Source: Pseudomonadota bacterium (GTDB taxonomy: Bacteria; Myxococcota_A; UBA796; SXON01). Taken from it: a stretch of DNA of 36,990 nucleotides. Each line of letters begins with the position of its first letter. Position 1 is the first letter of the stretch. Shown piece after piece: positions 9,715 to 35,790 of the stretch. The DNA lies in NCBI GenBank assembly GCA_005776735.1, contig SXOM01000024.1, positions 1 to 36,990 on the forward strand. Direction: 5' to 3'. A program made the translations under genes and the position numbers. Under the pieces are notes generated by a model that saw only the letters and a list, made by a program, of their open reading frames with translations, searched no databases and had not been told where the DNA came from.

Positions 9715-10173
9715 CACCCCTTCCAGCCAGGCCGCCACGGAGTTCCCGGACAGGTCGGTCACCGTGGCGGTGACGCGCGCGTTGCGGCCGTCGAGGTCCT
9801 CGAGCTCGAACCCATCGAAGCGCTGGTGCAGGTCGCTCCCCACCCAACGGCCGGCGTTGTCGCCGACGTTGGCGCACACCAGGCGCAGCTCGTAGGTGGT
9901 GTCGCCGAGCACGAGGTCCTCGTCGAGGTCGTACGCCTCCAGGCGGACGCTGGCGCCGTCGCCCAGCCCCTCCAGGCCGCCGACCCCGACCCGGTAGGGC
10001 GAGTAGGGCGACCCCCCTTGGGGCGGCCTGCCGTACGGGAGCGCGTCGCCGTCCACGAAGTCGTCCGCGCCGGCGGGCACGATCGTCGCCTCGTCCGCGC
10101 CCACCGCCTCACACGGCGTGGGCGCGGGGCCCGCAGCGCAGCCCCACCAGAGCAGGCCGAGCACCCTAGGCAC
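9700..10173 (-). CDS. small lipoprotein-like protein, paralogous to the product of 32300..32782
   Basis: ORF 9700..10173. Leader MPRVLGLLWWGC (atypical lipobox). Shares the order Cys..Cys / G.QGG..Y / ..VTD..G.. with the 32300 protein. Overlaps the upstream DUF2330 stop by 8 nt. Confidence 0.6.
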   Translation of the reverse strand: MPRVLGLLWWGCAAGPAPTPCEAVGADEATIVPAGADDFVDGDALPYGRPPQGGSPYSPYRVGVGGLEGLGDGASVRLEAYDLDEDLVLGDTTYELRLVCANVGDNAGRWVGSDLHQRFDGFELEDLDGRNARVTATVTDLSGNSVAAWLEGVLTPM

Positions 10174-11713
10174 GGCGCCGGCGTGCGGCGGCGGCCAGGA
10201 CCAGCACCGCGGGGGCCAGGAGCGCAGAAGCTTCTCCCGAGCACCCGGCGTTGAACGCGTCGGCGTCGGCCTGGACGTCGTGTTCGAACAACACCTCGCC
10301 CTCGCCGGACGCGCTGAGGTCGGTGATGCGCACCGCCGCGGGCGTGCCGAGCTCCTCTCGGACCGCGGTCACGTCCTCGCCGCCGTCGGGCACCACGATC
10401 TCGCGACCGTCGCCGAGGATCAGCGTGCGCGAGACCACGTTGCCGCTGAACGCGTTGGTGCGCTCCTGGCTGGTGGCGGACCGGGTCGCGAGCACCGTCT
10501 GCTCCACGGCGTCGTTGAACACGAACACCGGGTCGGCGGTCATCTCGGCGGGGTCCATCGTCGTGAACAGCCGCGTGCCCCACGCGGCGCCGTCGATTCG
10601 TGCCTGCTGTTCGGCCATGACCTCGAGGATCTCGGTCTCGAACCGGTCGGTGGCGACGACCGCGTCCCAGTCCTCGACCTCGACCTCGTAGCAGCCCGGA
10701 CACTGCAAGAACGTGGCCCCGTCGACCCCGTCCGGCGGCGGCACGAGCTCCAAGAGCAGGTTGGTGAGCTGGGTGCTGCCCGGCATGCCCGAGTACACGA
10801 TGGTCTCGAGCCAGGACACCGGGTCGGCCTCGCGCAGGGCGTCGGGGGAGAACCGGTCGGTCCAGTCGAGGAGGCCCGAGAAGTCGGTGGCAGGCCCCGC
10901 GTAGTCAGTGGCGAACGCCAGACCGCCGGCCTCGTCGACCGCGGCGGACACGACCTCGCGGTAGTTGTCGGCGCCTTCGTACCAGTTGATCGCCGCTTCG
11001 TTGATGTCGACGTGCAGGTAGTTGTCGGGGACGGCGCGCGAGGGACCGAAGACGAAGACCTCGATCGGCATGTCGGCCACCGCCGCCACCGCCGTGAGCT
11101 GGATGGGGATGCTGGCGGCCTCGGCCGCGTAGGACATCACGATCGGGGCGATGTCGCCGGCGTCCTTGTCGCTGAGGAGCTTGAGCGCCACGAAGTACTG
11201 GCCCGCGGCGACGTAGGGTTGCAGCACCGCGTCGAGCCCGTCGGGCAGGCTGTAGCCGTTGTCCTCGAGCCAGATCACCAGGACGTCGGCGTTCTCGGCC
11301 TGCAGCACCACGCTCAGGTACGGACCGACCGCCTCCTCGGACACGACGGTGACGCCACCACCGTCCTCGCGGGGCGCCATGTCGGCCGACATTGCCATCT
11401 CGGCGGCGCACCCGATGCTGCCGGGCCGGTCGACCCCGAGCTGGAACACCGGGGTGGTCTGGTTGGCGAGGGTCGTGAACATCGCGTCGTTGGACACCTC
11501 GACCGTGGGCTCGCCCGGCACCGGCACCACCCACGCGAACTCGTCCGCTTCGCCTTCGAAGGCAATCTGGACCTCGGTGGTGACCCGCCCCTGGTCGTAG
11601 AAGAAGAAGATCCGCTCCGCCGCCTGATCGACCGGCTGGATGGCGTTGCAGAACATGCCCCCGCACGCAGCGGCGGGGTCGGACGCGAAGAGGACGAGGT
11701 GGAGGAAGGTCAT
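10166..11713 (-). CDS. DUF2330-family protein with a MYXO-CTERM-type C-terminal sorting tail (paralogue A)
   Basis: ATG 11713 inside ORF 10166..11746, with GGAG upstream. MTFLHLVLFASDPAAACGGMFC... carries the N-terminal CGG(M/F)F hallmark I associate with DUF2330. The C-terminus is NAGCSGEASALLAPAVLVLAAAARRRRA (Gly-Cys, hydrophobic span, Arg cluster). Confidence 0.8.
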   Translation of the reverse strand: MTFLHLVLFASDPAAACGGMFCNAIQPVDQAAERIFFFYDQGRVTTEVQIAFEGEADEFAWVVPVPGEPTVEVSNDAMFTTLANQTTPVFQLGVDRPGSIGCAAEMAMSADMAPREDGGGVTVVSEEAVGPYLSVVLQAENADVLVIWLEDNGYSLPDGLDAVLQPYVAAGQYFVALKLLSDKDAGDIAPIVMSYAAEAASIPIQLTAVAAVADMPIEVFVFGPSRAVPDNYLHVDINEAAINWYEGADNYREVVSAAVDEAGGLAFATDYAGPATDFSGLLDWTDRFSPDALREADPVSWLETIVYSGMPGSTQLTNLLLELVPPPDGVDGATFLQCPGCYEVEVEDWDAVVATDRFETEILEVMAEQQARIDGAAWGTRLFTTMDPAEMTADPVFVFNDAVEQTVLATRSATSQERTNAFSGNVVSRTLILGDGREIVVPDGGEDVTAVREELGTPAAVRITDLSASGEGEVLFEHDVQADADAFNAGCSGEASALLAPAVLVLAAAARRRRA

Positions 11714-11830
11714 GGTGCGCTCCGAACGAAGGTGTACCCCGGACACCCGAGCAAAGGCGGGGCCAACCGCGAAAAGTATGTTCAGACCGACATGACCACA
11801 CCGCGCGCGCCCACGATCACGACACGGACG

Positions 11831-13393
11831 TCACCGACGCCGTCGCCGCAAGAGCCCGGCCCCGAGCACCACCCACGGCGCCACAAGTCCGGCCGATTCG
11901 TCACACCCGTTGTTGAACGCCGTCACCTCGGCGGCGGCCGCGTCGCGGTGATCGAACACCACCTCGCCCAGCCCGTTGGCCCCCATGTCCACGATGCGGA
12001 TGGCGGCGGGGGTGCCGAGGCGCTCCCGCGCCGCCGCCGAGTCGTCGAGGCCGTCGAGCACGATCTGGCGGCCGTCGGCCAGCGAGAGGGTGCGCCGCGT
12101 GTTCTGGCTGGCAAACAGGTTCTCGCGCTCGGTGCTTGTCGCGGCGTGCACCGCGCTGACGTCGGCAGGCACGTCGCCGTTGAGCACGAAGACCGGGTCG
12201 GCGGTCATCTCCCCCGGGTCCATCGTCGTGAACAGGCGGGTGGCGTAGTCGCTCCGATCGATGCGCTCCTGCTGGGCGCGGTGCACCGCCAACAACTCCT
12301 CGTCCACGCGGGCGGCGGCGGCCGCGGGGTCCCACCCCTCCACCTCGACCGTGTAGCAGCTCGGGCACGAGAGGAACTCGGCGGTCCCCACCCCCTCCGG
12401 CGGCGGCACGAGCTCCACCAGCAGCGCGTCGCCCTGGGTGCTTCGTGGCAGGCCCCCGTACAGCACCGCCTCGAGGAACGCGACGGGATCGAGCGTGGCG
12501 AGATGGTCCTCGTCGACCCAGCCTTCGTCGTAGACCACGAAGGTGAAGTCGGACGACGGGGCGGCCCAGTCGGTCACGAACGCGAGGCCGCCGGCCTCGT
12601 CGACGGCCGCGCTGACGACCTCCCGGTAGTTGTCGGCCCCTTCGTACCAGTTGAACGCCGCCTCGTTGAGCTCGACGGACAGGTAGTTGTCCGGCACCGC
12701 GCGCGCTTCGCCGAACACGAAGACCTCGATCGGCATGTCGTCGACCGCGGCCACCGCCGTGAGCTGGATGGGGATGCTCGCCGCGGAGGCGGCGTACGTC
12801 ATCGCGATCGGCGCGATGTCACCGGCGTCCTTGTCGCTCTGCAGCTTGAGCGCGACGAAGTACTGCTGGCTGGCGACGTACGGCTCCAGCGTGGCGTCGA
12901 GCCCGTCGGGGAGGTCGTAGCCGTTGTCCTGGAGCCATCCGACGAGCACCTGGGCGTCGGTGGCCAACAGGACGACCATGTCGTACGGGCCGACCGCTTC
13001 GCGCGACACGACGCTGATCGCACCGCCGTCGTCGTAGGAGTTCGCGGAGGCCGTGTCCTTGCTGAAGTCCGCTGGTGCTGCGAACAGACACCCGCCCGAC
13101 GCCCCGCGGTCGACGGTGAGCTGCAGCGTCGGCGTGGTCTGGTTGGCCACGAGCGTGAACATCGCGTCGTTGGAGAGTGTGACCGTGGGCTCGCCCGGCA
13201 CGGGAACGACCCACGCGAACTCGTCGCTCTCGCCCTCGTAGGTGATCTGCACCTCGGTCGTGACCCGCCCCTCGTGCACGAAGAAGAAGATGCGCTCCGC
13301 CGCCTGGTCGACCGGCGCGACCGCGTCGCAGAACATCCCCCCGCAGGCGACGGCCGCGGGTGCTCCCGCGAGGATCATCATCGAGAACAGCAT
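11831..13393 (-). CDS. DUF2330-family protein with a MYXO-CTERM-type tail (paralogue B)
   Basis: ORF 11831..13393 (ATG). MLFSMMILAGAPAAVACGGMFCDAVAPVDQAAERIFFF... is collinear with paralogue A. The C-terminus is NNGCDESAGLVAPWVVLGAGLLRRRRR. Confidence 0.8.
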   Translation of the reverse strand: MLFSMMILAGAPAAVACGGMFCDAVAPVDQAAERIFFFVHEGRVTTEVQITYEGESDEFAWVVPVPGEPTVTLSNDAMFTLVANQTTPTLQLTVDRGASGGCLFAAPADFSKDTASANSYDDGGAISVVSREAVGPYDMVVLLATDAQVLVGWLQDNGYDLPDGLDATLEPYVASQQYFVALKLQSDKDAGDIAPIAMTYAASAASIPIQLTAVAAVDDMPIEVFVFGEARAVPDNYLSVELNEAAFNWYEGADNYREVVSAAVDEAGGLAFVTDWAAPSSDFTFVVYDEGWVDEDHLATLDPVAFLEAVLYGGLPRSTQGDALLVELVPPPEGVGTAEFLSCPSCYTVEVEGWDPAAAAARVDEELLAVHRAQQERIDRSDYATRLFTTMDPGEMTADPVFVLNGDVPADVSAVHAATSTERENLFASQNTRRTLSLADGRQIVLDGLDDSAAARERLGTPAAIRIVDMGANGLGEVVFDHRDAAAAEVTAFNNGCDESAGLVAPWVVLGAGLLRRRRR

Positions 13394-26533: not shown

Positions 26534-26929
26534 GTGTCCCACGACCCCTACGGTTTCGAGTCCGCGACGCCGCCCGCCGCCCCGCCGGCTTCGGCCGGCT
26601 CCGGCATGGTGGCGGGGGTGAACGTCGCGATCTGGGGCGGGATCGGGCTGGTCTACTGCCTGGGCTGTACCGGCATCTTCGTCCCCACGTACGAGCCCGA
26701 CGCGGGCGATGGGCTCACCGACATGCTCGGGGTGTGGACCATCCTGATGGTACCGGCCTACCCGATGTTCGGCGTGGCCTTCGCCACGCTCGCCCTCCAC
26801 GCGGTCACGCGACGGTGGTGGTCCAGCGCCGGGCCGAACATCATCATCGGCGGGTGTGCGGGGCTGGCGGTGTGGGTGGCCGTGCTCTTCGCGGTGGTGT
26901 GCGCGGGGCTGGACACCCGGCCCGACTGA
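26534..26929 (+). CDS. small membrane protein, hypothetical (3-4 TM)
   Basis: ORF 26534..26929 (GTG; ATG 26606 possible). Hydrophobic segments [43 protein letters not shown] and [22 protein letters not shown] third positions. Confidence 0.5.
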
Positions 26930-26984: not shown

Positions 26985-27965
26985 GTGCGCGCACTTCCGC
27001 TCCTGTACCTGACGACGTTGGTGGCTTGCGACACCGAAGACACGGGAGACACCTCCGATCCCGGCGTGGTGTGGTCGGTGGAGCACGACGACGACGCCCG
27101 CGCGTGGTCGGGCGTGTGGGGGACCGGACCCGACGACGTCTGGATCGTGGGTGGCGATGCCGACGGGGGCGCCACCCGCCACTACGACGGCAGCGCGTGG
27201 TCGGACGTGCCCGTGCCCAGCGGCACCGGCCTCTTGGTGTGGGTGTACGGGTTCGCCTCCGACGACGTGTACGCGGTGGGCCGCGCCGGCGCGTTGGTGC
27301 ACTGGGACGGCGCCGCCTGGGCCGCGCTCGAGTCCGGCACCGACCGGGACCTGTGGGGGGTGTGGGGCGCCAGCAGCACCGACCTGTGGCTCGTCGGCGG
27401 CGAGGTCACCGGGACGTGGCCGCTCTCCCTGCACTGGGACGGCGCCGCCGCCACCGAGGTCCCCATCGAGGCCGACCAGAACCTGCATGGCGGCGTGGCC
27501 CTCTTCAAGGTGTGGGGGATCGGCGACGACAGCTGGGCGGTCGGCGACCTGGGGCTGGTCCTGCGCTGGGACGGCACACGCTGGATCGAGAACTTCGGCG
27601 GCGAGAAGGCCAACGACGACTTCGTCTCGTTGTGGGGCGAAGCGGCCGACGACGTGGTCGCCGTCGGCGGGCGCGGCAACGGGCGCATCGCGCGGTGGGA
27701 CGGGAGCGGCTGGACCACGACGATGCCGGACGCGCTGACCGGCCTCAACGCGGTGTACGTGCAGGACGGCCTGGCCTTCGTCGGCGGCATCTACGGCTAC
27801 ACGGGCACCCTCGATCTGGCCGACGGCGCCCTGGTCGGCGACCCGGTCGCCGTCACCGACGACGTGCACGCCATCTGGGCCGACGGGGCCGACGCGGTCT
27901 GGGCCGTGGGCGGCGTCTTCACCGCGCCGTACCGCGGGTTCCTCCTCCGCCGGGGTGCTCCGTGA
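26985..27965 (+). CDS. beta-propeller repeat lipoprotein
   Basis: ORF 26985..27965 (GTG). Lipobox LVAC. Six to seven repeats of the type L.GVWG....D.W.VG..G...HWDG..W. Confidence 0.65.
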   Translation: MRALPLLYLTTLVACDTEDTGDTSDPGVVWSVEHDDDARAWSGVWGTGPDDVWIVGGDADGGATRHYDGSAWSDVPVPSGTGLLVWVYGFASDDVYAVGRAGALVHWDGAAWAALESGTDRDLWGVWGASSTDLWLVGGEVTGTWPLSLHWDGAAATEVPIEADQNLHGGVALFKVWGIGDDSWAVGDLGLVLRWDGTRWIENFGGEKANDDFVSLWGEAADDVVAVGGRGNGRIARWDGSGWTTTMPDALTGLNAVYVQDGLAFVGGIYGYTGTLDLADGALVGDPVAVTDDVHAIWADGADAVWAVGGVFTAPYRGFLLRRGAP

Positions 27966-30334
27966 GCCGCGCCGGCCTGCTCCTGGCCCTGGCCGCCTGC
28001 GACAGCGAGGTGGTGCCCGACGGACACGGCGCGATCGCCGAGGGCGTGATGGGGGTGCTCGGCGAGCCGATGCCGTCCGCCACGGCCACGCAGTTGGCCA
28101 CATTCGAGCGTGGCAAGGAGGTCGCCACCCGCCGGTTCGACAGCTCGACCGGGCTCGGCCCCGGGTTCAACGTCGCGTTCTGCGCGAGCTGCCACGAGAA
28201 GCCGACCCCCGGGGGCTCGGCCGGCCTGTACCGCAACTTCTTCCTCGCCGGGCGCGAGCTCGACGACGGCAGCTTCTTCTTCGGCACGTCGGCGGGGAAC
28301 GGGTCGGGGGTCGTGCGCATGAACTACCAGGGGCCGCTCTACGATGCGCGCCCCGATCTCCCCGACACCGACAACGTCATCGCGCAGCGCAACGGCATCC
28401 CCATCTATGGGATGGGCCTGTTGGCCGAGCTCGACGACGAGGAGATCCTGAGCCGGGCCGACCCCGACGACGCCGACGGCGACGGCATCTCCGGGCGCGC
28501 CAACTACGACCGCGGGTTCGTGGGGCGCTTCGGGATGAAGGCGCAGACCGCATCGATCGAGGCGTTCATCCGCGGCCCGCTCAACAACCACGCCGGCGTG
28601 ACCACCGACCCCCTGAGCGAAGCCCAACGCGCCGAGCTGCCCATCGACTCGAGCCGCCCCACGGCGGTCGGGCGGTGGATGCCCCCGGGCCGCCCGCGCT
28701 GGGTGGTGCCCGACCCCTTCGCCGGCCTCGGCCACGTCGCGCAGGCCGCCGCCCCCGACGGCCCGCTGGTCGACACCGACGACATCCCCGACCCCGAGCT
28801 CTCCACCGCCGACCTCTTCGACCTCGTCAGCTTCGCGATGCTGCTCGCGGTGCCCGAGATCGAGGAGCCCGCGGGGGACGCCCTCCGCGGCCGGGACGCC
28901 TTCGACGAGGTGGGCTGTGGCGGGTGCCACACGCCCCGCCTGGACGGGCCGCGCGGCCCGGTGCCGGTGTACTCCGACCTGCTGCTGCACAACATGGGCG
29001 CCGACCTCGAGGACGGGATCGTGATGGGGTTCGCCGACGCCGACGAGTTCCGCACCATGCCGCTCTGGGGCGTGGCCGCCTCGGGCCCCTACCTGCACGA
29101 CGGGCGCGCCCCCAGCCTGCACGACGCCATCGTGCTCCACGGCGGCGAGGCCACGGCGTCCCGCGACGCCTACACGGCGCTCTCCCCCGCCGCACAGGCC
29201 GAGCTGATCGAGTTCCTCCGCTCGCTGGGCGGGCGCAGCCAGACCTCGACGGGCATGTTGCCCCCCGACGCTGTGGTGCCCGCGGTGGGGGAGTGGGGCG
29301 GGCCGCTGGCCGAGCTCAGCGAGGCGGACACGCTCACGTTCGCCGCCGCACGCGAACGGTTCGACCACGAGTTCTCGCTCGACGAAGGCGTCGGCAACCC
29401 GCGCTACAACGGAGACTCCTGCCGGGCCTGCCACTTCGACCCGGTGATCGGCGGCTCGGGGCCGCGCGATCTGAACGTGATGCGGCACGGGATCGTCGCC
29501 GGCGACGCCTTCATCGTGCCCACGCTCGGCACGACGGTGCTGCACCGCGAGCTCGCGCTGCGCGACGTCGGCATCGACGCCCAGGCCGAGATCAACGTGT
29601 ACGAGTCCCGCAACAGCCCCCCGCTCTTCGGCCTCGGCCTCGTCGAGGCCGTCCCCGACACGACGATCGAAGCGCTGGCCGACCCGGATGACACCGTGAC
29701 CCCCGACGGGATCACCGGGCGCGTGGGCCGGGTCGACGGCGGCCGCCTCGGCCGCTTCGGCTGGAAGGCCGACGTCCCCACCCTGGACGAGTTCGTGCGC
29801 GACGCCGTCGGCACCGAGCTCGGCATGACCCTCCCCTACCAGGAGGGGCTGAGTTTCGGGCGTCTCTACGACAACGACGACGTCGCCGACCCCGAGCTCA
29901 CCGACGTCGACAGCGCGTTCCTCGCGCACTTCATCCGAACCCTGGGCCCGCCGCCGCGCCCGCCCGGGGTCGACGAAGCGGCCGAAGCGCGCGGTGAGGC
30001 CGGCTTCATCGAGGTCGGCTGCGCCCTCTGCCACGTGCCCGTGCTCGAGAGCGACCTCGGCCCGGTGCCGCTCTACAGCGATCTCCTCCTGCACGAGCTG
30101 CTCGACGAAGGCGCCGTGGGCATCGAGTCGGGCAGCGCCTCGATGACCGAGTTCCGCACGCCGCCGCTGTGGGGCATCGCCGAGACCGGGCCCTACTTCC
30201 ACGACGGGGCGAGCGAGACCCTCGCCGACGCGATCGACCGCCACGCCGGCGAAGCAACCGCCTCTCGCGACGCGTGGCGCCTGCTCGACGCCGACGCCCA
30301 GGCCGACCTCCTCACCTTCCTGGAGTCGCGATGA
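27962..30334 (+). CDS. lipoprotein made of two tandem DUF1111 (di-haem, CCP/MauG-like oxidoreductase) modules; four CxxCH sites
   Basis: GTG 27962 in ORF 26963..30334 (GTGA overlap). Lipobox LAAC. Module 1 carries GLGPGFNVAFCASCH, GRFGMKAQ, GCGGCHTP, YSDLLLHNMG and FRTMPLWG..GPYLHDG..HGGEA. Module 2 carries the same order: SCRACH, GRFGWKAD, GCALCHVP, YSDLLLHELL and FRTPPLWG..GPYFHDG..HAGEA. Confidence 0.8.
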   Translation: MSRAGLLLALAACDSEVVPDGHGAIAEGVMGVLGEPMPSATATQLATFERGKEVATRRFDSSTGLGPGFNVAFCASCHEKPTPGGSAGLYRNFFLAGRELDDGSFFFGTSAGNGSGVVRMNYQGPLYDARPDLPDTDNVIAQRNGIPIYGMGLLAELDDEEILSRADPDDADGDGISGRANYDRGFVGRFGMKAQTASIEAFIRGPLNNHAGVTTDPLSEAQRAELPIDSSRPTAVGRWMPPGRPRWVVPDPFAGLGHVAQAAAPDGPLVDTDDIPDPELSTADLFDLVSFAMLLAVPEIEEPAGDALRGRDAFDEVGCGGCHTPRLDGPRGPVPVYSDLLLHNMGADLEDGIVMGFADADEFRTMPLWGVAASGPYLHDGRAPSLHDAIVLHGGEATASRDAYTALSPAAQAELIEFLRSLGGRSQTSTGMLPPDAVVPAVGEWGGPLAELSEADTLTFAAARERFDHEFSLDEGVGNPRYNGDSCRACHFDPVIGGSGPRDLNVMRHGIVAGDAFIVPTLGTTVLHRELALRDVGIDAQAEINVYESRNSPPLFGLGLVEAVPDTTIEALADPDDTVTPDGITGRVGRVDGGRLGRFGWKADVPTLDEFVRDAVGTELGMTLPYQEGLSFGRLYDNDDVADPELTDVDSAFLAHFIRTLGPPPRPPGVDEAAEARGEAGFIEVGCALCHVPVLESDLGPVPLYSDLLLHELLDEGAVGIESGSASMTEFRTPPLWGIAETGPYFHDGASETLADAIDRHAGEATASRDAWRLLDADAQADLLTFLESR

Positions 30335-31671
30335 CCCTCTGCTGGTTGGTCCTCGCCGCCTGCGACTCCGAAGACACCGGCGACACGGCCGGGCCGGACA
30401 GCGCCGACACCGCCGACTCTGGCGACGGCACGGTCACCGACCCGCTGTCGATGCCGGCCACCCCCACGCTCGACGCCGGCGACTTTCCCACCTCGGACAC
30501 CTGCGCCGAGTGCCATCCCGATCACGTCGCAGAGTGGGCGGTCTCCACGCACGCCTACGCGATCGTCGACCCCGTCTTCCAGGCCCTGGTCGGGCTGCGG
30601 CAGGGGCACGCCGACGGCCGCGAGGACCGCGTGTGCACGCAGTGCCACAGCGCCATCGGCGTACGCTCGGGCGAGATCGGCCCCGGCTTCTCGTTCTCGG
30701 CGCTGAGCCCGGTGGTGCAGGAGGGGGTCACCTGCGTCGCCTGCCACACCGTGACCGACGTCCAACGGCCCTACAACAGCGGCCACGTGCTCGACCCCGG
30801 GGCGCCGATGCAGGGGCCCATCGCCGACGCCGCGTCGACCACCGCACACCTGTCGGCCTACAGCGATCTCTTCGACGACGCCGAGCTCTGCGGGGGATGT
30901 CACGACGTGACCGAGCCGACCGGCCTCGAGCTCGAGCGGCCCTACGCCGAGTGGTTGCAGTCCCCGTCCCAGGCCGAGGGCACCCCCTGCCAGGGGTGCC
31001 ACATGACGTCGACCCGGGGGCCGGCCGCGACGGGCGGCCCCGAGCGCGACCGTCACGACCACCGCTTCGTCGGCCTCGACAACCCCACCGGCGACCCCGA
31101 GCTGCAAGCGCGCGTGGAGGCCCTGCTCACCGACATCGCTGCCGTCGACCTGATCGTGCCCGCGTCGAGCCCTGTGGGCGAGCGGTTGGTGGTCACCGCC
31201 GACGTGCACAACCTCATCGACGGCCACAACCTGCCCACCGGCTCGACGTTCATTCGGGAGCTGTGGGTCGAGCTCCTGGTTGCCGACGACGCAGGCACGA
31301 TCGTCTACGCGTCGGGCACGCTCGGGGTGGAGGGCGACCTGCGCGGCTACTGGTCCCCGAGCGACCCGTACGGCGACCCCGACCTGGTCACCTTCGGGTC
31401 GGCGTTCGTCGACGCCTGGGGCGAGCCCACCCTGTTCCCGTGGCTCGCGTCCGAACACTGGAGCGCGGCCATTCCGCCGCAGTACCACCGCGCGGTGAGC
31501 TGGATGGTGCCCACCGACACGCTCGCCGAGGGCACCTACACCGTGTCCGCGCGGCTGCGCCTGCGACCGTTCCCGCCGTTCCTGCTCCGCGCGCTCGGCC
31601 AGAACGCGGCCGCCGACGCCCAGCCCATCTACGACCTCGCGAGCGCCGACGCCGTGGTGGAGCTGCGGTGA
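30331..31671 (+). CDS. pentahaem c-type cytochrome lipoprotein with a non-haem C-terminal beta-rich domain
   Basis: ATG 30331 in ORF 30169..31671 (ATGA overlap). Lipobox LAAC. Five CxxCH sites: CAECH, CTQCH, CVACH, CGGCH and CQGCH. The first motif is followed by ..W..S.HA, as in multihaem families. Confidence 0.85.
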   Translation: MTLCWLVLAACDSEDTGDTAGPDSADTADSGDGTVTDPLSMPATPTLDAGDFPTSDTCAECHPDHVAEWAVSTHAYAIVDPVFQALVGLRQGHADGREDRVCTQCHSAIGVRSGEIGPGFSFSALSPVVQEGVTCVACHTVTDVQRPYNSGHVLDPGAPMQGPIADAASTTAHLSAYSDLFDDAELCGGCHDVTEPTGLELERPYAEWLQSPSQAEGTPCQGCHMTSTRGPAATGGPERDRHDHRFVGLDNPTGDPELQARVEALLTDIAAVDLIVPASSPVGERLVVTADVHNLIDGHNLPTGSTFIRELWVELLVADDAGTIVYASGTLGVEGDLRGYWSPSDPYGDPDLVTFGSAFVDAWGEPTLFPWLASEHWSAAIPPQYHRAVSWMVPTDTLAEGTYTVSARLRLRPFPPFLLRALGQNAAADAQPIYDLASADAVVELR

Positions 31672-32303
31672 TCACCCTGGCGCTCTTGGGCTGTGCCGCC
31701 CCGCTCGGTCCCGCGCCGGGGGTGGCCACCGCCGATGGCTGCGTGCTCGCCGTCCACGTCGCCCGCGACGAGGAGGTGCCCGAAACCACCGCGTCGGAGC
31801 TGCTCGCGGCCCTGGTGGCCGCCGGCCCCACCCTGGACCTGCGGCTGGTCCCCGACGCGGGCACGGCGCGCACCTTCGACCTCGGCGACCCGCTCGCCGG
31901 CGACGCTCCCGACGCCCTGGCCGACGCCGTGACCGCCATCGCCACGCCCGTCCGGGACGGGGTCGAGCTGGTCGTGGTGCCCACGCTCGCGGCCCCCCAC
32001 ACGGTCGCCGCCCGCACGCTCGGGACCCTCCGCGGCGTGGCGCTGTCGCCCTGGGCACCCCCGCTGCCCGCCGGCCTGCGCGACCTGCCCCCGTGGACCC
32101 CGTCGGTCTTCGCGGCCGCCGCCGAGCTGCACGGCCGCCCCGACGCCGGCCGGGTGCTCGCCCACGAGCTCGGTCACGCCCTCGGGCTCGCGCACGATCC
32201 ACGTCCCGACAACCTGATGTACGGTGGGGGCGACGGCGCCGCCCTCGACGCGGTACAACGACAAACCGTCCGCACCACCGCCTGCCCCGAGCCACCCGCA
32301 TGA
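31668..32303 (+). CDS. small metzincin-type zinc metalloprotease lipoprotein
   Basis: GTG 31668 in ORF 30510..32303 (GTGA overlap). Lipobox LLGC. VLAHELGHALGLAHDPRPDNLMYGGG gives the HExxHxxGxxH(D) motif plus a Met-turn candidate. Confidence 0.8.
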   Translation: MITLALLGCAAPLGPAPGVATADGCVLAVHVARDEEVPETTASELLAALVAAGPTLDLRLVPDAGTARTFDLGDPLAGDAPDALADAVTAIATPVRDGVELVVVPTLAAPHTVAARTLGTLRGVALSPWAPPLPAGLRDLPPWTPSVFAAAAELHGRPDAGRVLAHELGHALGLAHDPRPDNLMYGGGDGAALDAVQRQTVRTTACPEPPA

Positions 32304-32782
32304 TCACGCTCCTCCTGCTCCTCGGTTGCGAAGACGTCGAGGCCGCGTGCGCCGCGGCCGCGGTGGCCGGCCCGACGCTCACGCTGGGCACGGGCGAGTC
32401 GGCCTGGGAGGCCCTCGAGGCGGATCAGTCCGTCGGCTGGGACTACGGGACCCAGGGCGGCATGCACGTCTACGGCAGCCTCCAGGCCACCCACCTCGTG
32501 CAGCCGGCTTCGAACAACCTCGCCGATCCGGCCACCCCCCTGGTCGACTTCGTGCTCCTCGACGGCGACGTGGAGATCGCCGGCTTCCGCGAGCTGCCGC
32601 ACCACTTCACCGAGGGCCTGGACGGCTCGTTCCAGGTGCTCGGCGACCGCCTGGTGCTGTACGAAGAGGACGAAGGGTACCTGGACGGGCTCGCCGTCGT
32701 GATGCGCGCGCAGGTGACCGACCGGTGCGGCACCCCCGTGCAGGCCGAGCTGCCGCTGGTCCTGTCGGCGTCCGACGACTGA
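32300..32782 (+). CDS. small lipoprotein, paralogous to the product of 9700..10173
   Basis: ATG 32300 in ORF 32093..32782 (ATGA overlap). Lipobox LLLGC, a second Cys 7 residues later, then WDYGTQGGMHVYG and ...RAQVTDRCGTPVQAEL... Confidence 0.6.
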   Translation: MITLLLLLGCEDVEAACAAAAVAGPTLTLGTGESAWEALEADQSVGWDYGTQGGMHVYGSLQATHLVQPASNNLADPATPLVDFVLLDGDVEIAGFRELPHHFTEGLDGSFQVLGDRLVLYEEDEGYLDGLAVVMRAQVTDRCGTPVQAELPLVLSASDD

Positions 32783-32794
32783 CCCACCCCTCGG

Positions 32795-32890
32795 GGCGCC
32801 GCGACGCGACCGTCCCGAAGGCGGCAACCTCGCCCCGCGGCGCGCGGCGCCGGGCGGCCCCGGCCGCCTTCGGGACGGTCGCGCGGCGCC
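32795..32890 (+). terminator. long imperfect inverted repeat (about 28 bp of stem, 3-nt bulge, 37-nt loop) just after the operon
   Basis: The left arm is GGCGCCGCGACGCGACCGTCCCGAAGGCGGC (32795-32825). The right arm is GCCGCCTTCGGGACGGTCGCGCGGCGCC (32863-32890). It starts 13 nt after the stop at 32782. No T-tract. Confidence 0.45.
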
Positions 32891-32926
32891 GCCCACAAGC
32901 CCGGGATTCGGTGCTATCCTCGGCAG

Positions 32927-33706
32927 GTGCCCAAGACCCACCTCGGCCTGATGCTGGTGCTGTGCGCGGCGTGTGCGGACGTGGAGGCCGAGGTTGCGCC
33001 TCCCACGATCGAATCGCAGTCGCTCCTGGCGCTCCAACACTTCTACGAAGACGATGCGGGCGAGCAGATCGCGGTCCTGCGCGAGCTGGTCGACGCCGAG
33101 GTGAGCGACACGCCGCACGGCTTCTACTTCGACGCCCTCTCGGCCGAGGACGTGGAGATGTTCGAGCACTCCGACGCCGCGATCTGGGAACACACCACCG
33201 GCTGCGGCGTGCTCGCGAAGATGGCCGGCGAGCTGTCCCAGTACGCGGCGGTCGTCCCCGAGGAGGACCAGAGCTTCCCCGACCCGGGCTACGAGACGTG
33301 GACCCGCGAGATCACCGGGGGTAACGCCGATGCGTTCCTGGACGGCGACGGCCTCGACACCTGGAACGAGGTGGTGAAGGCGGAGATCGGCTTCGCCGTG
33401 GATTACGGGATGCACAAGGACTATCGCTGGCACGACGGGGTGTTGGCGCAGCTGAGCCTGGTCCCCGAGGGCGTGATGCCGGCGGACGCGTTCAGCACCG
33501 AGCTGGTCGTCGGGTTCACCATCGAGCTGTGGTACGAGCTGGACGGCACGATGATCTGGTACAACGCGTCGTGGACCGAGATCGAGAGCCCGATCGACGA
33601 GGACAACGTCGAGATCGAGGGGTGGCTCGACCTGCTCATCGACGGCACCCTGGACTACTACTGGGGCACCCAGGAGCACGCGACCGGCATTCCGCGGCCG
33701 GAGTGA
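32927..33706 (+). CDS. acidic secreted/lipoprotein-like protein, hypothetical
   Basis: ORF 32927..33706 (GTG). Leader MPKTHLGLMLVLCAACAD. Asp/Glu/Trp-rich. No family recognised. Confidence 0.6.
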   Translation: MPKTHLGLMLVLCAACADVEAEVAPPTIESQSLLALQHFYEDDAGEQIAVLRELVDAEVSDTPHGFYFDALSAEDVEMFEHSDAAIWEHTTGCGVLAKMAGELSQYAAVVPEEDQSFPDPGYETWTREITGGNADAFLDGDGLDTWNEVVKAEIGFAVDYGMHKDYRWHDGVLAQLSLVPEGVMPADAFSTELVVGFTIELWYELDGTMIWYNASWTEIESPIDEDNVEIEGWLDLLIDGTLDYYWGTQEHATGIPRPE

Positions 33707-34179: not shown

Positions 34180-35790
34180 TCAGAGGGTCGAGAACGCCGC
34201 CGAGAGGAGGAAGATCGCCCCGGGGGCGCCCGGCGTGCCGGCGGCGGCGGTGTCGGGCCACGCCTGGTCCGCGCCCACGAGCAGGTCGAGCACCCCGTCG
34301 CCGTCGAGGTCGGCCGCGCGGGCGAGGCCCTGCTGGCCGCCGGGGAGCGCGCCGACCCAACGGGCGGCGGCGTGGTCGGGGTTCTGCACGCCCCAGAGCG
34401 GGCCGGGAAACAGGTAGGTGGCGCCGGCCTGATCGGGGCCGGCGCCCAGGCCGGCCGTCCCCTCCAGCGGCGCGCTGACGAACACGTCGTCGCGGGCGTC
34501 GCCGTCCACGTCGACCTCGCCCGACCACGCCGAACCGAAGGTGGTGGTCAGCGTGTCGCCCAGGCCGCCGATGAGCCGTACGTCGGCGTCGTTGGGGTAG
34601 TGGGTTCCGGCGATCGGCCCGCGGAAGAGCAAGAACTCCCCCGCCCCCGCGCCGAGGAACGCACCCAGGTCGTCATAGCCGTCGCCGTCCACGTCACCGG
34701 CGCGCCCGCCGCTCTGGATGCGCGCCGTGCCGATGAGCGACACGATGCGCAGGTCGGCGTCGTCGATCGTCGACACGCCGGCGAGGTCGCCGGTGAAGCC
34801 GAAGAGGCCCCCGTTGGAGGTGTCGGGGCCGCCGTCGGCACCGAGCTCGTCGGGGCGGTAGCCGGGCGCGTCGAGCAACGCGTCCGCGAGGCCGTCGCCG
34901 TCGAGGTCGGGCGCCCCACCGAAGTCCGAGAGCCCGAGCGCGTCGCCGGACGCGGCGCCGTGGATCGTGGCGACCGCGAGCGCAGCCGCGTCGCCGGGCG
35001 CCGGCGTGCCGACGAACAGGAAGACCGCGCCGCGGTCGGCGTCGAAGCCCGCGTACCCCGGCGAAGCGAGGAGCCACTCGCCCCGACCGTCGCCCTCGCG
35101 ATCGCCAAGCGCCCGCACACCGCCGAACCGCTGCGGAACGGCGCTCGGATCCGGGGGGCCGCCCGGACCGCCGGACCCTTCGTCGGTCACCGTGAGGGCC
35201 ACCGCGGCGGCGGGCGCGGTGGCGTCGCGCAGATCGTCCAGGAGCCACACCTGGGCCGGGCCGTCGGTCGCCGCCACGGCGAGCTCGGCGTCGCCGTCGC
35301 CGTCGAGGTCGCCAGGGGTCCCCACCCGCAGGCCGGCCCCGTCGTCGGCCGCGAACCAGCCGCGCGCCTGGGTGGTGGGGTCGGCGGTGGTCGGCAGGGC
35401 CGTGACGAGCACGCGGCCCGACGCGGCACCTTCGCCCGCTTCGCCGAGCACCAGCTCCGCGAGCCCGTCGCCATCGAGGTCGGCGAGGACCACGTCGCGC
35501 CCGAGCGCGGCGCCCTCGGCCCCCGCGGCCCACCGGGCGCCGACGGTCAGCAGCGTGTCGCGCCGGGCCGGGCAGCCCCGACCGTCGCAGTCGCTGTCGA
35601 GGTCGTCGAGGCAGGACTCGGGGGCGGCGGGGTACACGTCGGGGTCGCCGTCGTCGCAATCGTCGCCCCCCACCTCGAACGCGTCGTGCCCGTCGTGGTC
35701 ACGGTCGTAGGCCAACGCACGATCTTCGTCGGTGACGATGCAGCCGGCGGCCAGGGAGAGCGTGAGGGGGAGGAGCTGGGCGCCGCGCAT
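34180..35790 (-). CDS. FG-GAP/VCBS (integrin-alpha-like) repeat lipoprotein with an N-terminal MopE-like Cys/Asp-rich putative metal-binding motif
   Basis: ORF 34180..35790 (ATG). Leader ...LSLAAGC. DRDHDGHDAFEVGGDDCDDGDPDVYPAAPESCLDDLDSDCDG. Multiple D.DGDG.(A/D)(D/E)L..G repeats (ADLDGDGLAELVLG, GDLDGDGDAELAVA, PDLDGDGLADALL, GDVDGDGYDDLG, VDVDGDARDDVFV, ADLDGDGVLDLLVG). Confidence 0.78.
   Translation of the reverse strand: MRGAQLLPLTLSLAAGCIVTDEDRALAYDRDHDGHDAFEVGGDDCDDGDPDVYPAAPESCLDDLDSDCDGRGCPARRDTLLTVGARWAAGAEGAALGRDVVLADLDGDGLAELVLGEAGEGAASGRVLVTALPTTADPTTQARGWFAADDGAGLRVGTPGDLDGDGDAELAVAATDGPAQVWLLDDLRDATAPAAAVALTVTDEGSGGPGGPPDPSAVPQRFGGVRALGDREGDGRGEWLLASPGYAGFDADRGAVFLFVGTPAPGDAAALAVATIHGAASGDALGLSDFGGAPDLDGDGLADALLDAPGYRPDELGADGGPDTSNGGLFGFTGDLAGVSTIDDADLRIVSLIGTARIQSGGRAGDVDGDGYDDLGAFLGAGAGEFLLFRGPIAGTHYPNDADVRLIGGLGDTLTTTFGSAWSGEVDVDGDARDDVFVSAPLEGTAGLGAGPDQAGATYLFPGPLWGVQNPDHAAARWVGALPGGQQGLARAADLDGDGVLDLLVGADQAWPDTAAAGTPGAPGAIFLLSAAFSTL

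Follow-up and report, generated by a model that had tools for sequence, protein, structure and literature searches.

A conserved module of β-propeller, tandem DHOR haem protein, penta-haem cytochrome and metzincin genes in uncultured Myxococcota-like bacteria

Positions 1 through 36,990 of contig SXOM01000024.1 (GenBank assembly GCA_005776735.1; overall G+C ∼73%), herein the window, in whose numbering all positions are given, carry five consecutive + strand genes, g1 through g5. They encode a predicted seven-bladed β-propeller, a tandem DHOR (DUF1111) protein with four haem c sites, a penta-haem cytochrome c, a matrixin-like metzincin, and a small protein of no recognized family, and the run is closed by a long, GC-rich hairpin (Table 1). 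The operon is real and, on sequence comparison, conserved in uncultured marine Myxococcota-like bacteria. Its outline had been drawn from the letters of the window (herein the original prediction), and the five open reading frames (ORFs), the four stop-start overlaps, the five leader sequences up to the Cys, the nine CxxCH sites (four in g2 and five in g3), and the g4 active-site sequence HELGHALGLAHD followed by NLMY are all present exactly as it described.

Three features show that g1 through g5 are one operon encoding a set of predicted envelope lipoproteins: the four 4-nucleotide (nt) overlaps, the lack of an internal + strand terminator-like site, and the strong hairpin directly after g5. 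The overlaps read GTGA (g1/g2), ATGA (g2/g3), GTGA (g3/g4), and ATGA (g4/g5), and a terminator consensus scan found no terminator-like site on the + strand inside the unit. The hairpin has 32-nt arms that are 91% complementary and a minimum free energy of −91.4 kcal/mol (z = −5.1 versus shuffles, with 0 of 200 shuffles as stable); it starts 11 nt past the g5 stop, so that the hairpin of the original prediction stands while its spacing of 13 nt does not. Because it is without a T-run, the hairpin was not called by the same scan; it is probably a transcript end or stabilizer. A short, hydrophobic leader running up to a cysteine (LVAC, LAAC, LAAC, LLGC, and LLGC for g1 through g5) opens all five products, and this cysteine is kept among homologues, at 90% or more for C15 of g1 (alignment A1) and C13 of g2 (alignment A4) and invariantly for C11 of g3 (alignment A2).

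Table 1. Features of the operon and its surroundings in the window
Feature	Position	Strand	Description
g1	26985-27965	+	326 aa; seven-bladed β-propeller, predicted lipoprotein
g2	27962-30334	+	790 aa; tandem DHOR/DUF1111, predicted lipoprotein, four haem c sites
g2 module A	28022-29251	+	residues ∼21-430; CASCH 28181-28195, CGGCH 28916-28930
g2 module B	29252-30331	+	residues ∼431-790; CRACH 29420-29434, CALCH 30020-30034
g3	30331-31671	+	446 aa; penta-haem cytochrome c, c552/5ZE8 type, predicted lipoprotein
g4	31668-32303	+	211 aa; matrixin-like metzincin; HELGHALGLAH 32163-32195; Met-turn M184 32217-32219
g5	32300-32782	+	160 aa; small predicted lipoprotein, family not recognized
Hairpin	32794-32894	+	long, GC-rich, closes the unit; arms 32794-32825 and 32863-32894
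g0	26534-26929	+	131 aa; hydrophobic ORF
g6	32927-33706	+	259 aa; acidic, lipoprotein-like ORF
DUF2330 protein	10166-11746	-	∼520 aa; paralogue of the next
Paralogue	11831-13393	-	∼520 aa
FG-GAP protein	34180-35790	-	536 aa; lipoprotein

Conservation of the linkage was examined from three directions. In the g2-anchored sample, with one genome per GTDB species, the tandem DHOR is fused in 27 loci and split into a pair of genes in 6 from Planctomycetota; all of these loci come from metagenome-assembled genomes (MAGs), labelled mostly Myxococcota, Polyangia or Nannocystaceae. In the fused-tandem loci g1 adjoins g2 in 22 of 27, and g3 and g4 are both present in five, which are among the loci most like the window. 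A metagenome scan anchored on g3 gave 28 orthologue loci at 36% identity or more (27 without L083, which is the window's own sequence). Among the 26 that have room for it, 20 carry g2 immediately 5′ of a close g3 orthologue; g4 follows g3 in most, and g1 stands either before g2 or after g4. The order is g1-g2-g3-g4 in 10 of these loci and g2-g3-g4-g1 in 5, so the linkage has outlived rearrangement. Look-ups anchored on g1 in three loci, made with precomputed gene calls, each returned g1, a DHOR gene, a Cytochrome_C554-type gene, and then a gene of 124 to 288 residues with no Pfam match; a g4-sized gene (226 to 288 residues) is adjacent in two of the three, and in the third a single gene intervenes.

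Linkage of g1 through g4 thus recurs across dozens of loci at 45 to 70% identity and in two orders, and this recurrence rules out, for these four genes, the reading that unrelated lipoprotein genes came together by chance in a genome rich in both lipoproteins and G+C. The one observation in keeping with chance is that conservation with the cluster does not extend to g5, g0, or g6. The synteny check set by the original prediction therefore came out in favour of g1 through g4, its domain calls (propeller, two DUF1111/DHOR modules, penta-haem cytochrome, and metzincin) all hold in Pfam, profile, and fold searches, and the CxxCH and metzincin HExxH motifs are conserved in orthologues, not chance occurrences. 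Its five-gene unit is reduced by one, since g5 occurs in only 2 of ∼60 related loci. On comparative sequence evidence the conserved module is four genes, with g1-g2 as the evolutionary core and g3-g4 as an extension in one subclade that includes the window.

As judged from sequence matches, DHOR and metzincin genes are associated in more than one phylum. Downstream of the Planctomycetota split DHOR pairs an HExxH lipoprotein with a weak match to the g4 profile is found in four loci (L026, L033, L035, and L036), and the L035 protein is a full-length Matrixin (99 bits).

The g1 product was modelled with AlphaFold2 from a 40-sequence alignment, with a predicted local distance difference test score (pLDDT) of 93 and a predicted template-modelling score (pTM) of 0.88; the model has 28 strands, arranged as seven blades of four. 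A Foldseek search returned only generic seven-bladed propellers (WD40, Ycf48, and designed proteins; template-modelling score (TM) ∼0.7, ∼10 to 14% identity), and g1 matched none of the Pfam and NCBIfam families. Its relatives number more than 1500, and among the best 120 every one that its source names is a "hypothetical protein." The protein is without CxxCH; the family alignment has six invariant residues that are not structural (H66, K175, D212, R230, H295, and D300). Homology to the propeller family DUF1513 was tried and rejected, as a family-versus-family hhalign comparison gave a probability of 0.1% and g1 has no PF07433 match. In two bins labelled Phycisphaerae (L004, 3968 through 6670; L009, 7414 through 9855) a g1-type propeller lies inside an ORF of ∼800 to 900 residues, sized from crude gene calls, upstream of a tandem DHOR, and may there be a domain of a bigger protein.

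The g2 product matches DHOR/DUF1111 (PF06537) with E = 5.8e-59 and a score of 200.3 bits (cut-off, 22); the three matching stretches span both halves. The halves are 35% identical to one another (E = 1e-52) and therefore represent a true tandem duplication. Their four CxxCH sites (residues 74, 319, 487, and 687) show 98% or higher conservation across 118 full-length homologues and are invariant in alignment A4, and the PLWG...GPYxHDG...HxGEA regions in both halves are conserved across the same homologues. The AlphaFold2 model (pLDDT 86.8, pTM 0.88) has as its nearest solved folds, module by module, the gamma subunit of hydrazine synthase (HZS-gamma; 5c2v_C, the top Foldseek match), MbnH (6e1c), the MauG-preMADH complex, and bacterial cytochrome c peroxidases (CCPs), at target-normalized TM scores of 0.45 to 0.5. 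A PDB sequence search with g2 found CCPs only, at E = 3e-9 or weaker, and neither that search nor the fold search found a solved DHOR structure. Together the sequence matches and the model show g2 as two diverged di-haem modules of predicted CCP/MauG fold, with four predicted haems.

Like members of the CCP/MauG/MbnH superfamily, each g2 module would have a two-domain di-haem fold with N- and C-terminal CxxCH and a PLWG...GPYxHDG region. It differs from them in its marginal sequence similarity, in having two modules in one chain, and in the segment that holds the distal ligand (Met in CCP, Tyr in MauG), which does not align with DHOR. The CCP/MauG family models (PF03150; TIGR03791) gave no PF03150 match and sub-cut-off scores for TTQ_mauG (25.9 versus 443.9) and CytoC_perox (32.9 versus 150); the other NCBIfam scores were also under their cut-offs (TIGR03981, 45.6 versus 340; MbnH, 38.5 versus 363; hydrazine_gamma, 37.9 versus 625).

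A tandem DUF1111 protein had been put forward as unusual. The two-module call stands and the rarity does not: at least 118 clusters of 740 to 830 residues align with g2 over its full length at 55 to 72% identity, so that the fused form is common in the lineage, and Planctomycetota have the modules as adjacent genes. In six loci of that phylum (L026 and L033 through L037) two neighbouring genes are collinear with g2 modules A and B, which suggests either a heterodimeric ancestor that was later fused or a fusion that was later split. Two longer relatives examined as Rosetta-stone fusions were discarded, one (P0068, 1120 residues) for a wrong-frame, Arg-rich upstream extension and the other (P0050, 1247 residues) as a read-through that retains an internal lipoprotein leader.

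The kinship of g2 with MauG and MbnH raises the possibility, on the unlikely side in our judgement, of protein maturation, in which the tandem DHOR would use H2O2 or O2 to modify a residue on g1 or another partner and so produce a protein-derived cofactor or metal site, with the metzincin trimming the substrate and g3 resetting the haems. MbnH and the MauG-preMADH complex are among the nearest folds of g2, and its best NCBIfam matches, weak as they are, lie with MauG-like and MbnH families. Known MauG-family enzymes are encoded beside their protein substrates, and the heavy subunit of methylamine dehydrogenase is itself a seven-bladed propeller; no neighbour of g2 is more conserved than g1, which also carries the six invariant residues listed above. 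The NCBIfam scores, however, are all far under their cut-offs, the cluster encodes no small Cys-rich or Trp-bearing MauA-like substrate, and modification of g1 by g2 is hypothetical. A four-haem double enzyme with a penta-haem cytochrome also suits sustained electron flow over one-off maturation.

The g3 product has five CxxCH sites (residues 58, 102, 135, 187, and 220) and a C-terminal immunoglobulin (Ig)-like domain with the motif HNLPTG, all invariant in seven orthologues. Its family profile finds the penta-haem cytochrome c552 of Thermochromatium tepidum (5ze8_A) in the PDB with E = 3.4e-18 in three stretches, and the alignment takes in the C-terminal domain (residues 296 through 352 versus 297 through 352). 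The two proteins share five CxxCH in the same order, the Ig-like domain, and an H-x-x-P-T-G loop; g3 differs in being a predicted lipoprotein and in being encoded within a DHOR operon. Pfam matches are to Cytochrome_C554 and C7. The function of c552 itself is not known (bioRxiv 10.1101/2023.11.21.568154).

The penta-haem plus Ig-like architecture is also that of MccSep/ExtKL (polysulfide reductase, multihaem selenoprotein), to which the g3 profile has a weaker match (PDB 9wt9, E = 1e-6; NCBIfam ExtKL, 42.7 bits, cut-off 250). MccSep depends on a catalytic selenocysteine, Sec325, and a haem-ligating Cys239 (bioRxiv 10.1101/2025.11.18.688581). In g3 Ser305 occupies the Sec325 position and Cys239 falls inside an insertion missing from the g3 profile; because Sec/Cys325 and Cys239 are not kept, we assign g3 to the c552 type and reject the MccSep/ExtKL assignment. 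Two close g3-type cytochromes occur in L105 (5876 through 7279, + strand; 9630 through 11030, − strand) without an adjacent DHOR, as do others in L100, L104, L107, and L108, so this type of cytochrome is not exclusive to the DHOR operon.

Across 35 aligned g4 relatives H166, H170, G173, H176, and the Met-turn M184 are invariant and E167 is conserved in 90% or more. The match to Peptidase_M10 (PF00413) is just over threshold (25.2 bits, cut-off 24), only the active-site helix of g4 aligning to the Pfam model; 34 of the 35 relatives have a Matrixin match, and in the PDB the g4 profile aligns with fragilysin and matrix metalloproteinases over their active-site helix and Met-turn. The protein has the HExxHxxGxxH motif and Met-turn of the matrixins and fragilysin-type metzincins (MEROPS M10) and differs from them in being very small and fast-evolving. 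A word-indexed search returned three homologues, so that all 1.8 billion representatives had to be searched exhaustively; this gave 80 relatives at E < 1e-3 and only 4 at E < 1e-10, and on such sequence divergence g4 is fast-evolving. It is a small, divergent metzincin and, to judge from its conserved catalytic residues, probably an active protease.

The g5 product has no match in Pfam or NCBIfam. Homologues occur only in L006, after g4, and in L013, before g1, and none was found in 80 metagenome loci. From this distribution, g5 is a lineage-specific accessory, translationally coupled here and outside the conserved module.

The closest established theme is the imelysin-DUF1111-imelysin-DUF1513 operon, whose genes share fitness phenotypes, for which iron uptake has been suggested, and whose DUF1513 product is a β-propeller (bioRxiv 10.1101/072470; PMC3143127). 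The classical order (Peptidase_M75, DHOR, Peptidase_M75, DUF1513) was confirmed in two alphaproteobacterial loci with a single-module DHOR (L063 and L067), and imelysin adjoins a single-module DHOR in 15 loci. That operon and the present cluster share a PF06537 di-haem core, a secreted β-propeller, a protein from a family named as a metallopeptidase, and an envelope location. The cluster differs in its fused four-haem tandem DHOR, in a propeller unrelated in sequence to DUF1513, in a metzincin in place of M75, in its added penta-haem cytochrome, and in the fact that all of its components are predicted lipoproteins. A DHOR with a propeller and a metallopeptidase-named protein is thus an already established theme, of which the cluster is a variant; every component of g1 through g4 belongs to a recognizable family, and the cluster is not categorically new. 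The combination of genes, which the original prediction could match to no described pathway, also found no match here, and no published characterization of the cluster was found. For DUF1111, PF06537/DHOR, and COG3488 proteins the literature yielded no functional or biochemical characterization, only papers on context and DHOR-glycoside hydrolase fusions.

By analogy with the imelysin operon and with EfeUOB, the module might handle metals, through oxidation or uptake of ferrous iron or oxidation of another metal, with the metzincin-fold protein replacing the metal-binding imelysin partner (M75) and g1 replacing DUF1513. The iron link of the imelysin operon and its confirmed gene order count for such a role, as does a TonB-dependent receptor beside the cluster in its closest relatives (L001/L012, L003, and the P0126 locus). 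We nevertheless consider metal handling rather unlikely. Neither imelysin nor a permease nor a TonB-dependent receptor was matched in g1 through g6 or in ten other scanned ORFs of the window, the hhalign comparison separates the g1 family from DUF1513, and the catalytic Glu of g4, kept at 90% or more, points to a working protease and not a metal carrier. As a general iron clue the receptor adjacency was dropped, since it holds for those closest relatives only and not for tandem-DHOR loci at large.

In another set of loci (L039, L040, L042, L047, L049, L052, L053, L061, L062, and L066), single-module DHOR genes often lie no more than a few kb from TonB-dependent receptor genes. These loci are mostly Gemmatimonadota/Longimicrobiales MAGs, with L061 labelled Rhodothermales, and SusC/SusD-like pairs are present in the two loci checked. 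The TonB-receptor neighbourhood is a third genomic context of DHOR, besides the imelysin operon and the present cluster.

Hydrazine synthase of anammox bacteria offers an architectural parallel: like the cluster, it combines a CCP-like di-haem subunit with β-propeller subunits and has a multihaem protein as its dedicated electron donor. The propeller of the cluster is without haem domains and the hydrazine_gamma score of g2 is 37.9 against 625, so the resemblance is architectural only; the relatives carry labels that are mostly Myxococcota, with some Planctomycetota classes, Alphaproteobacteria, and others, and no known anammox lineage is among them. It is improbable, in our estimation, that propeller, tandem DHOR, and penta-haem cytochrome form an unrecognized catalytic complex of uncultured marine Myxococcota with a chemistry unassigned in the CCP/MauG superfamily. 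Such a complex could oxidize a small substrate, inorganic or organic, on a propeller-haem platform, as hydrazine synthase does, or equip the propeller with a protein-derived cofactor of a new kind; the enzyme would then be no ordinary peroxide scavenger.

Bacterial CCPs are homodimers whose electron donor is a separate protein, either a c-type cytochrome or a cupredoxin. The reading that we tentatively favour is a peroxidase-type haem redox complex of the envelope, served by a dedicated cytochrome as electron donor, membrane-tethered and on the periplasmic side. Multihaem g3 would hand respiratory-chain electrons to four-haem g2, a covalent pseudo-dimer comparable to the bacterial CCP homodimer; fused tandem or paralogous gene pair alike would give a heterodimer-like version of that dimer. 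The peroxidatic haems of g2 would reduce H2O2 or a related oxidant, perhaps with a bound substrate being oxidized in a coupled step, while the g1 propeller, as obligate partner, would dock or present the substrate and the g4 metzincin would mature or turn over a component. We favour this mechanism because of the conserved linkage, the nine conserved CxxCH sites, the CCP/MauG-like fold of g2, the likeness of g3 to the low-potential penta-haem c552, and the DUF1111-DUF1513 precedent. The module for peroxide, metal or protein oxidation envisaged in the original prediction is, from the gene content, plausible.

Several points weigh against the peroxidase-type complex. Searches of the literature and the PDB found no DHOR protein characterized biochemically or structurally, and peroxidase activity of g2 is inferred from its modelled fold only. 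The cytochrome g3 is absent from most g1-g2 loci and is therefore not a universal electron donor, and among the scanned ORFs of the window none encodes a quinol dehydrogenase or any other connection to the respiratory chain. Since the distal-ligand region does not align, the chemistry could differ, for example as a RoxA-like oxygenase or as protein oxidation. The part given to the metzincin is a guess. The leaders of g3, g4, and g5 are atypical of lipoprotein signal peptides, the Cys being preceded by just 8 to 10 residues, none of them Lys or Arg. Because these leaders are short and without a basic n-region, the predicted lipoprotein status of g3 through g5 leans mainly on the Cys conserved in orthologues.

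The surroundings of the operon in the window are unrelated to it and not conserved with it, and were set aside as a functional clue. Upstream, g0 has a coding-like G+C at third codon positions (0.95), ends 55 nt 5′ of g1, and may be co-transcribed with it; it has no family match and no homologue in related loci. The leader of g6, 3′ of the hairpin, is MLVLCAAC; the protein has no match in Pfam or NCBIfam, and neither g0 nor g6 ever recurs beside the cluster in related loci. Further out lie two adjacent paralogues with a similar N-terminus (...ACGGMFC...PVDQAAERIFFF), one of which matches DUF2330 (E = 1e-38), and a lipoprotein with FG-GAP repeats and a MopE-type putative metal-binding motif. 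A MopE-motif protein is also near the cluster in L002, which may be coincidence. Apart from the DUF2330 and FG-GAP proteins, the neighbours include a Castor/Pollux-type channel (by Pfam) and deoB/deoC-like genes (by inspection of translations only).

DHOR/DUF1111 is a large and widespread family of envelope haem proteins without a biochemically defined activity, and the module supplies a compact set of candidate partners for it: a probable electron donor, a constant propeller, and a protease. The theme of DHOR with a propeller has arisen with non-homologous propellers, which suggests a mechanistic role for the propeller. Its linkage across dozens of uncultured lineages makes the module tractable for heterologous reconstitution, which could assign a reaction to the DHOR family.

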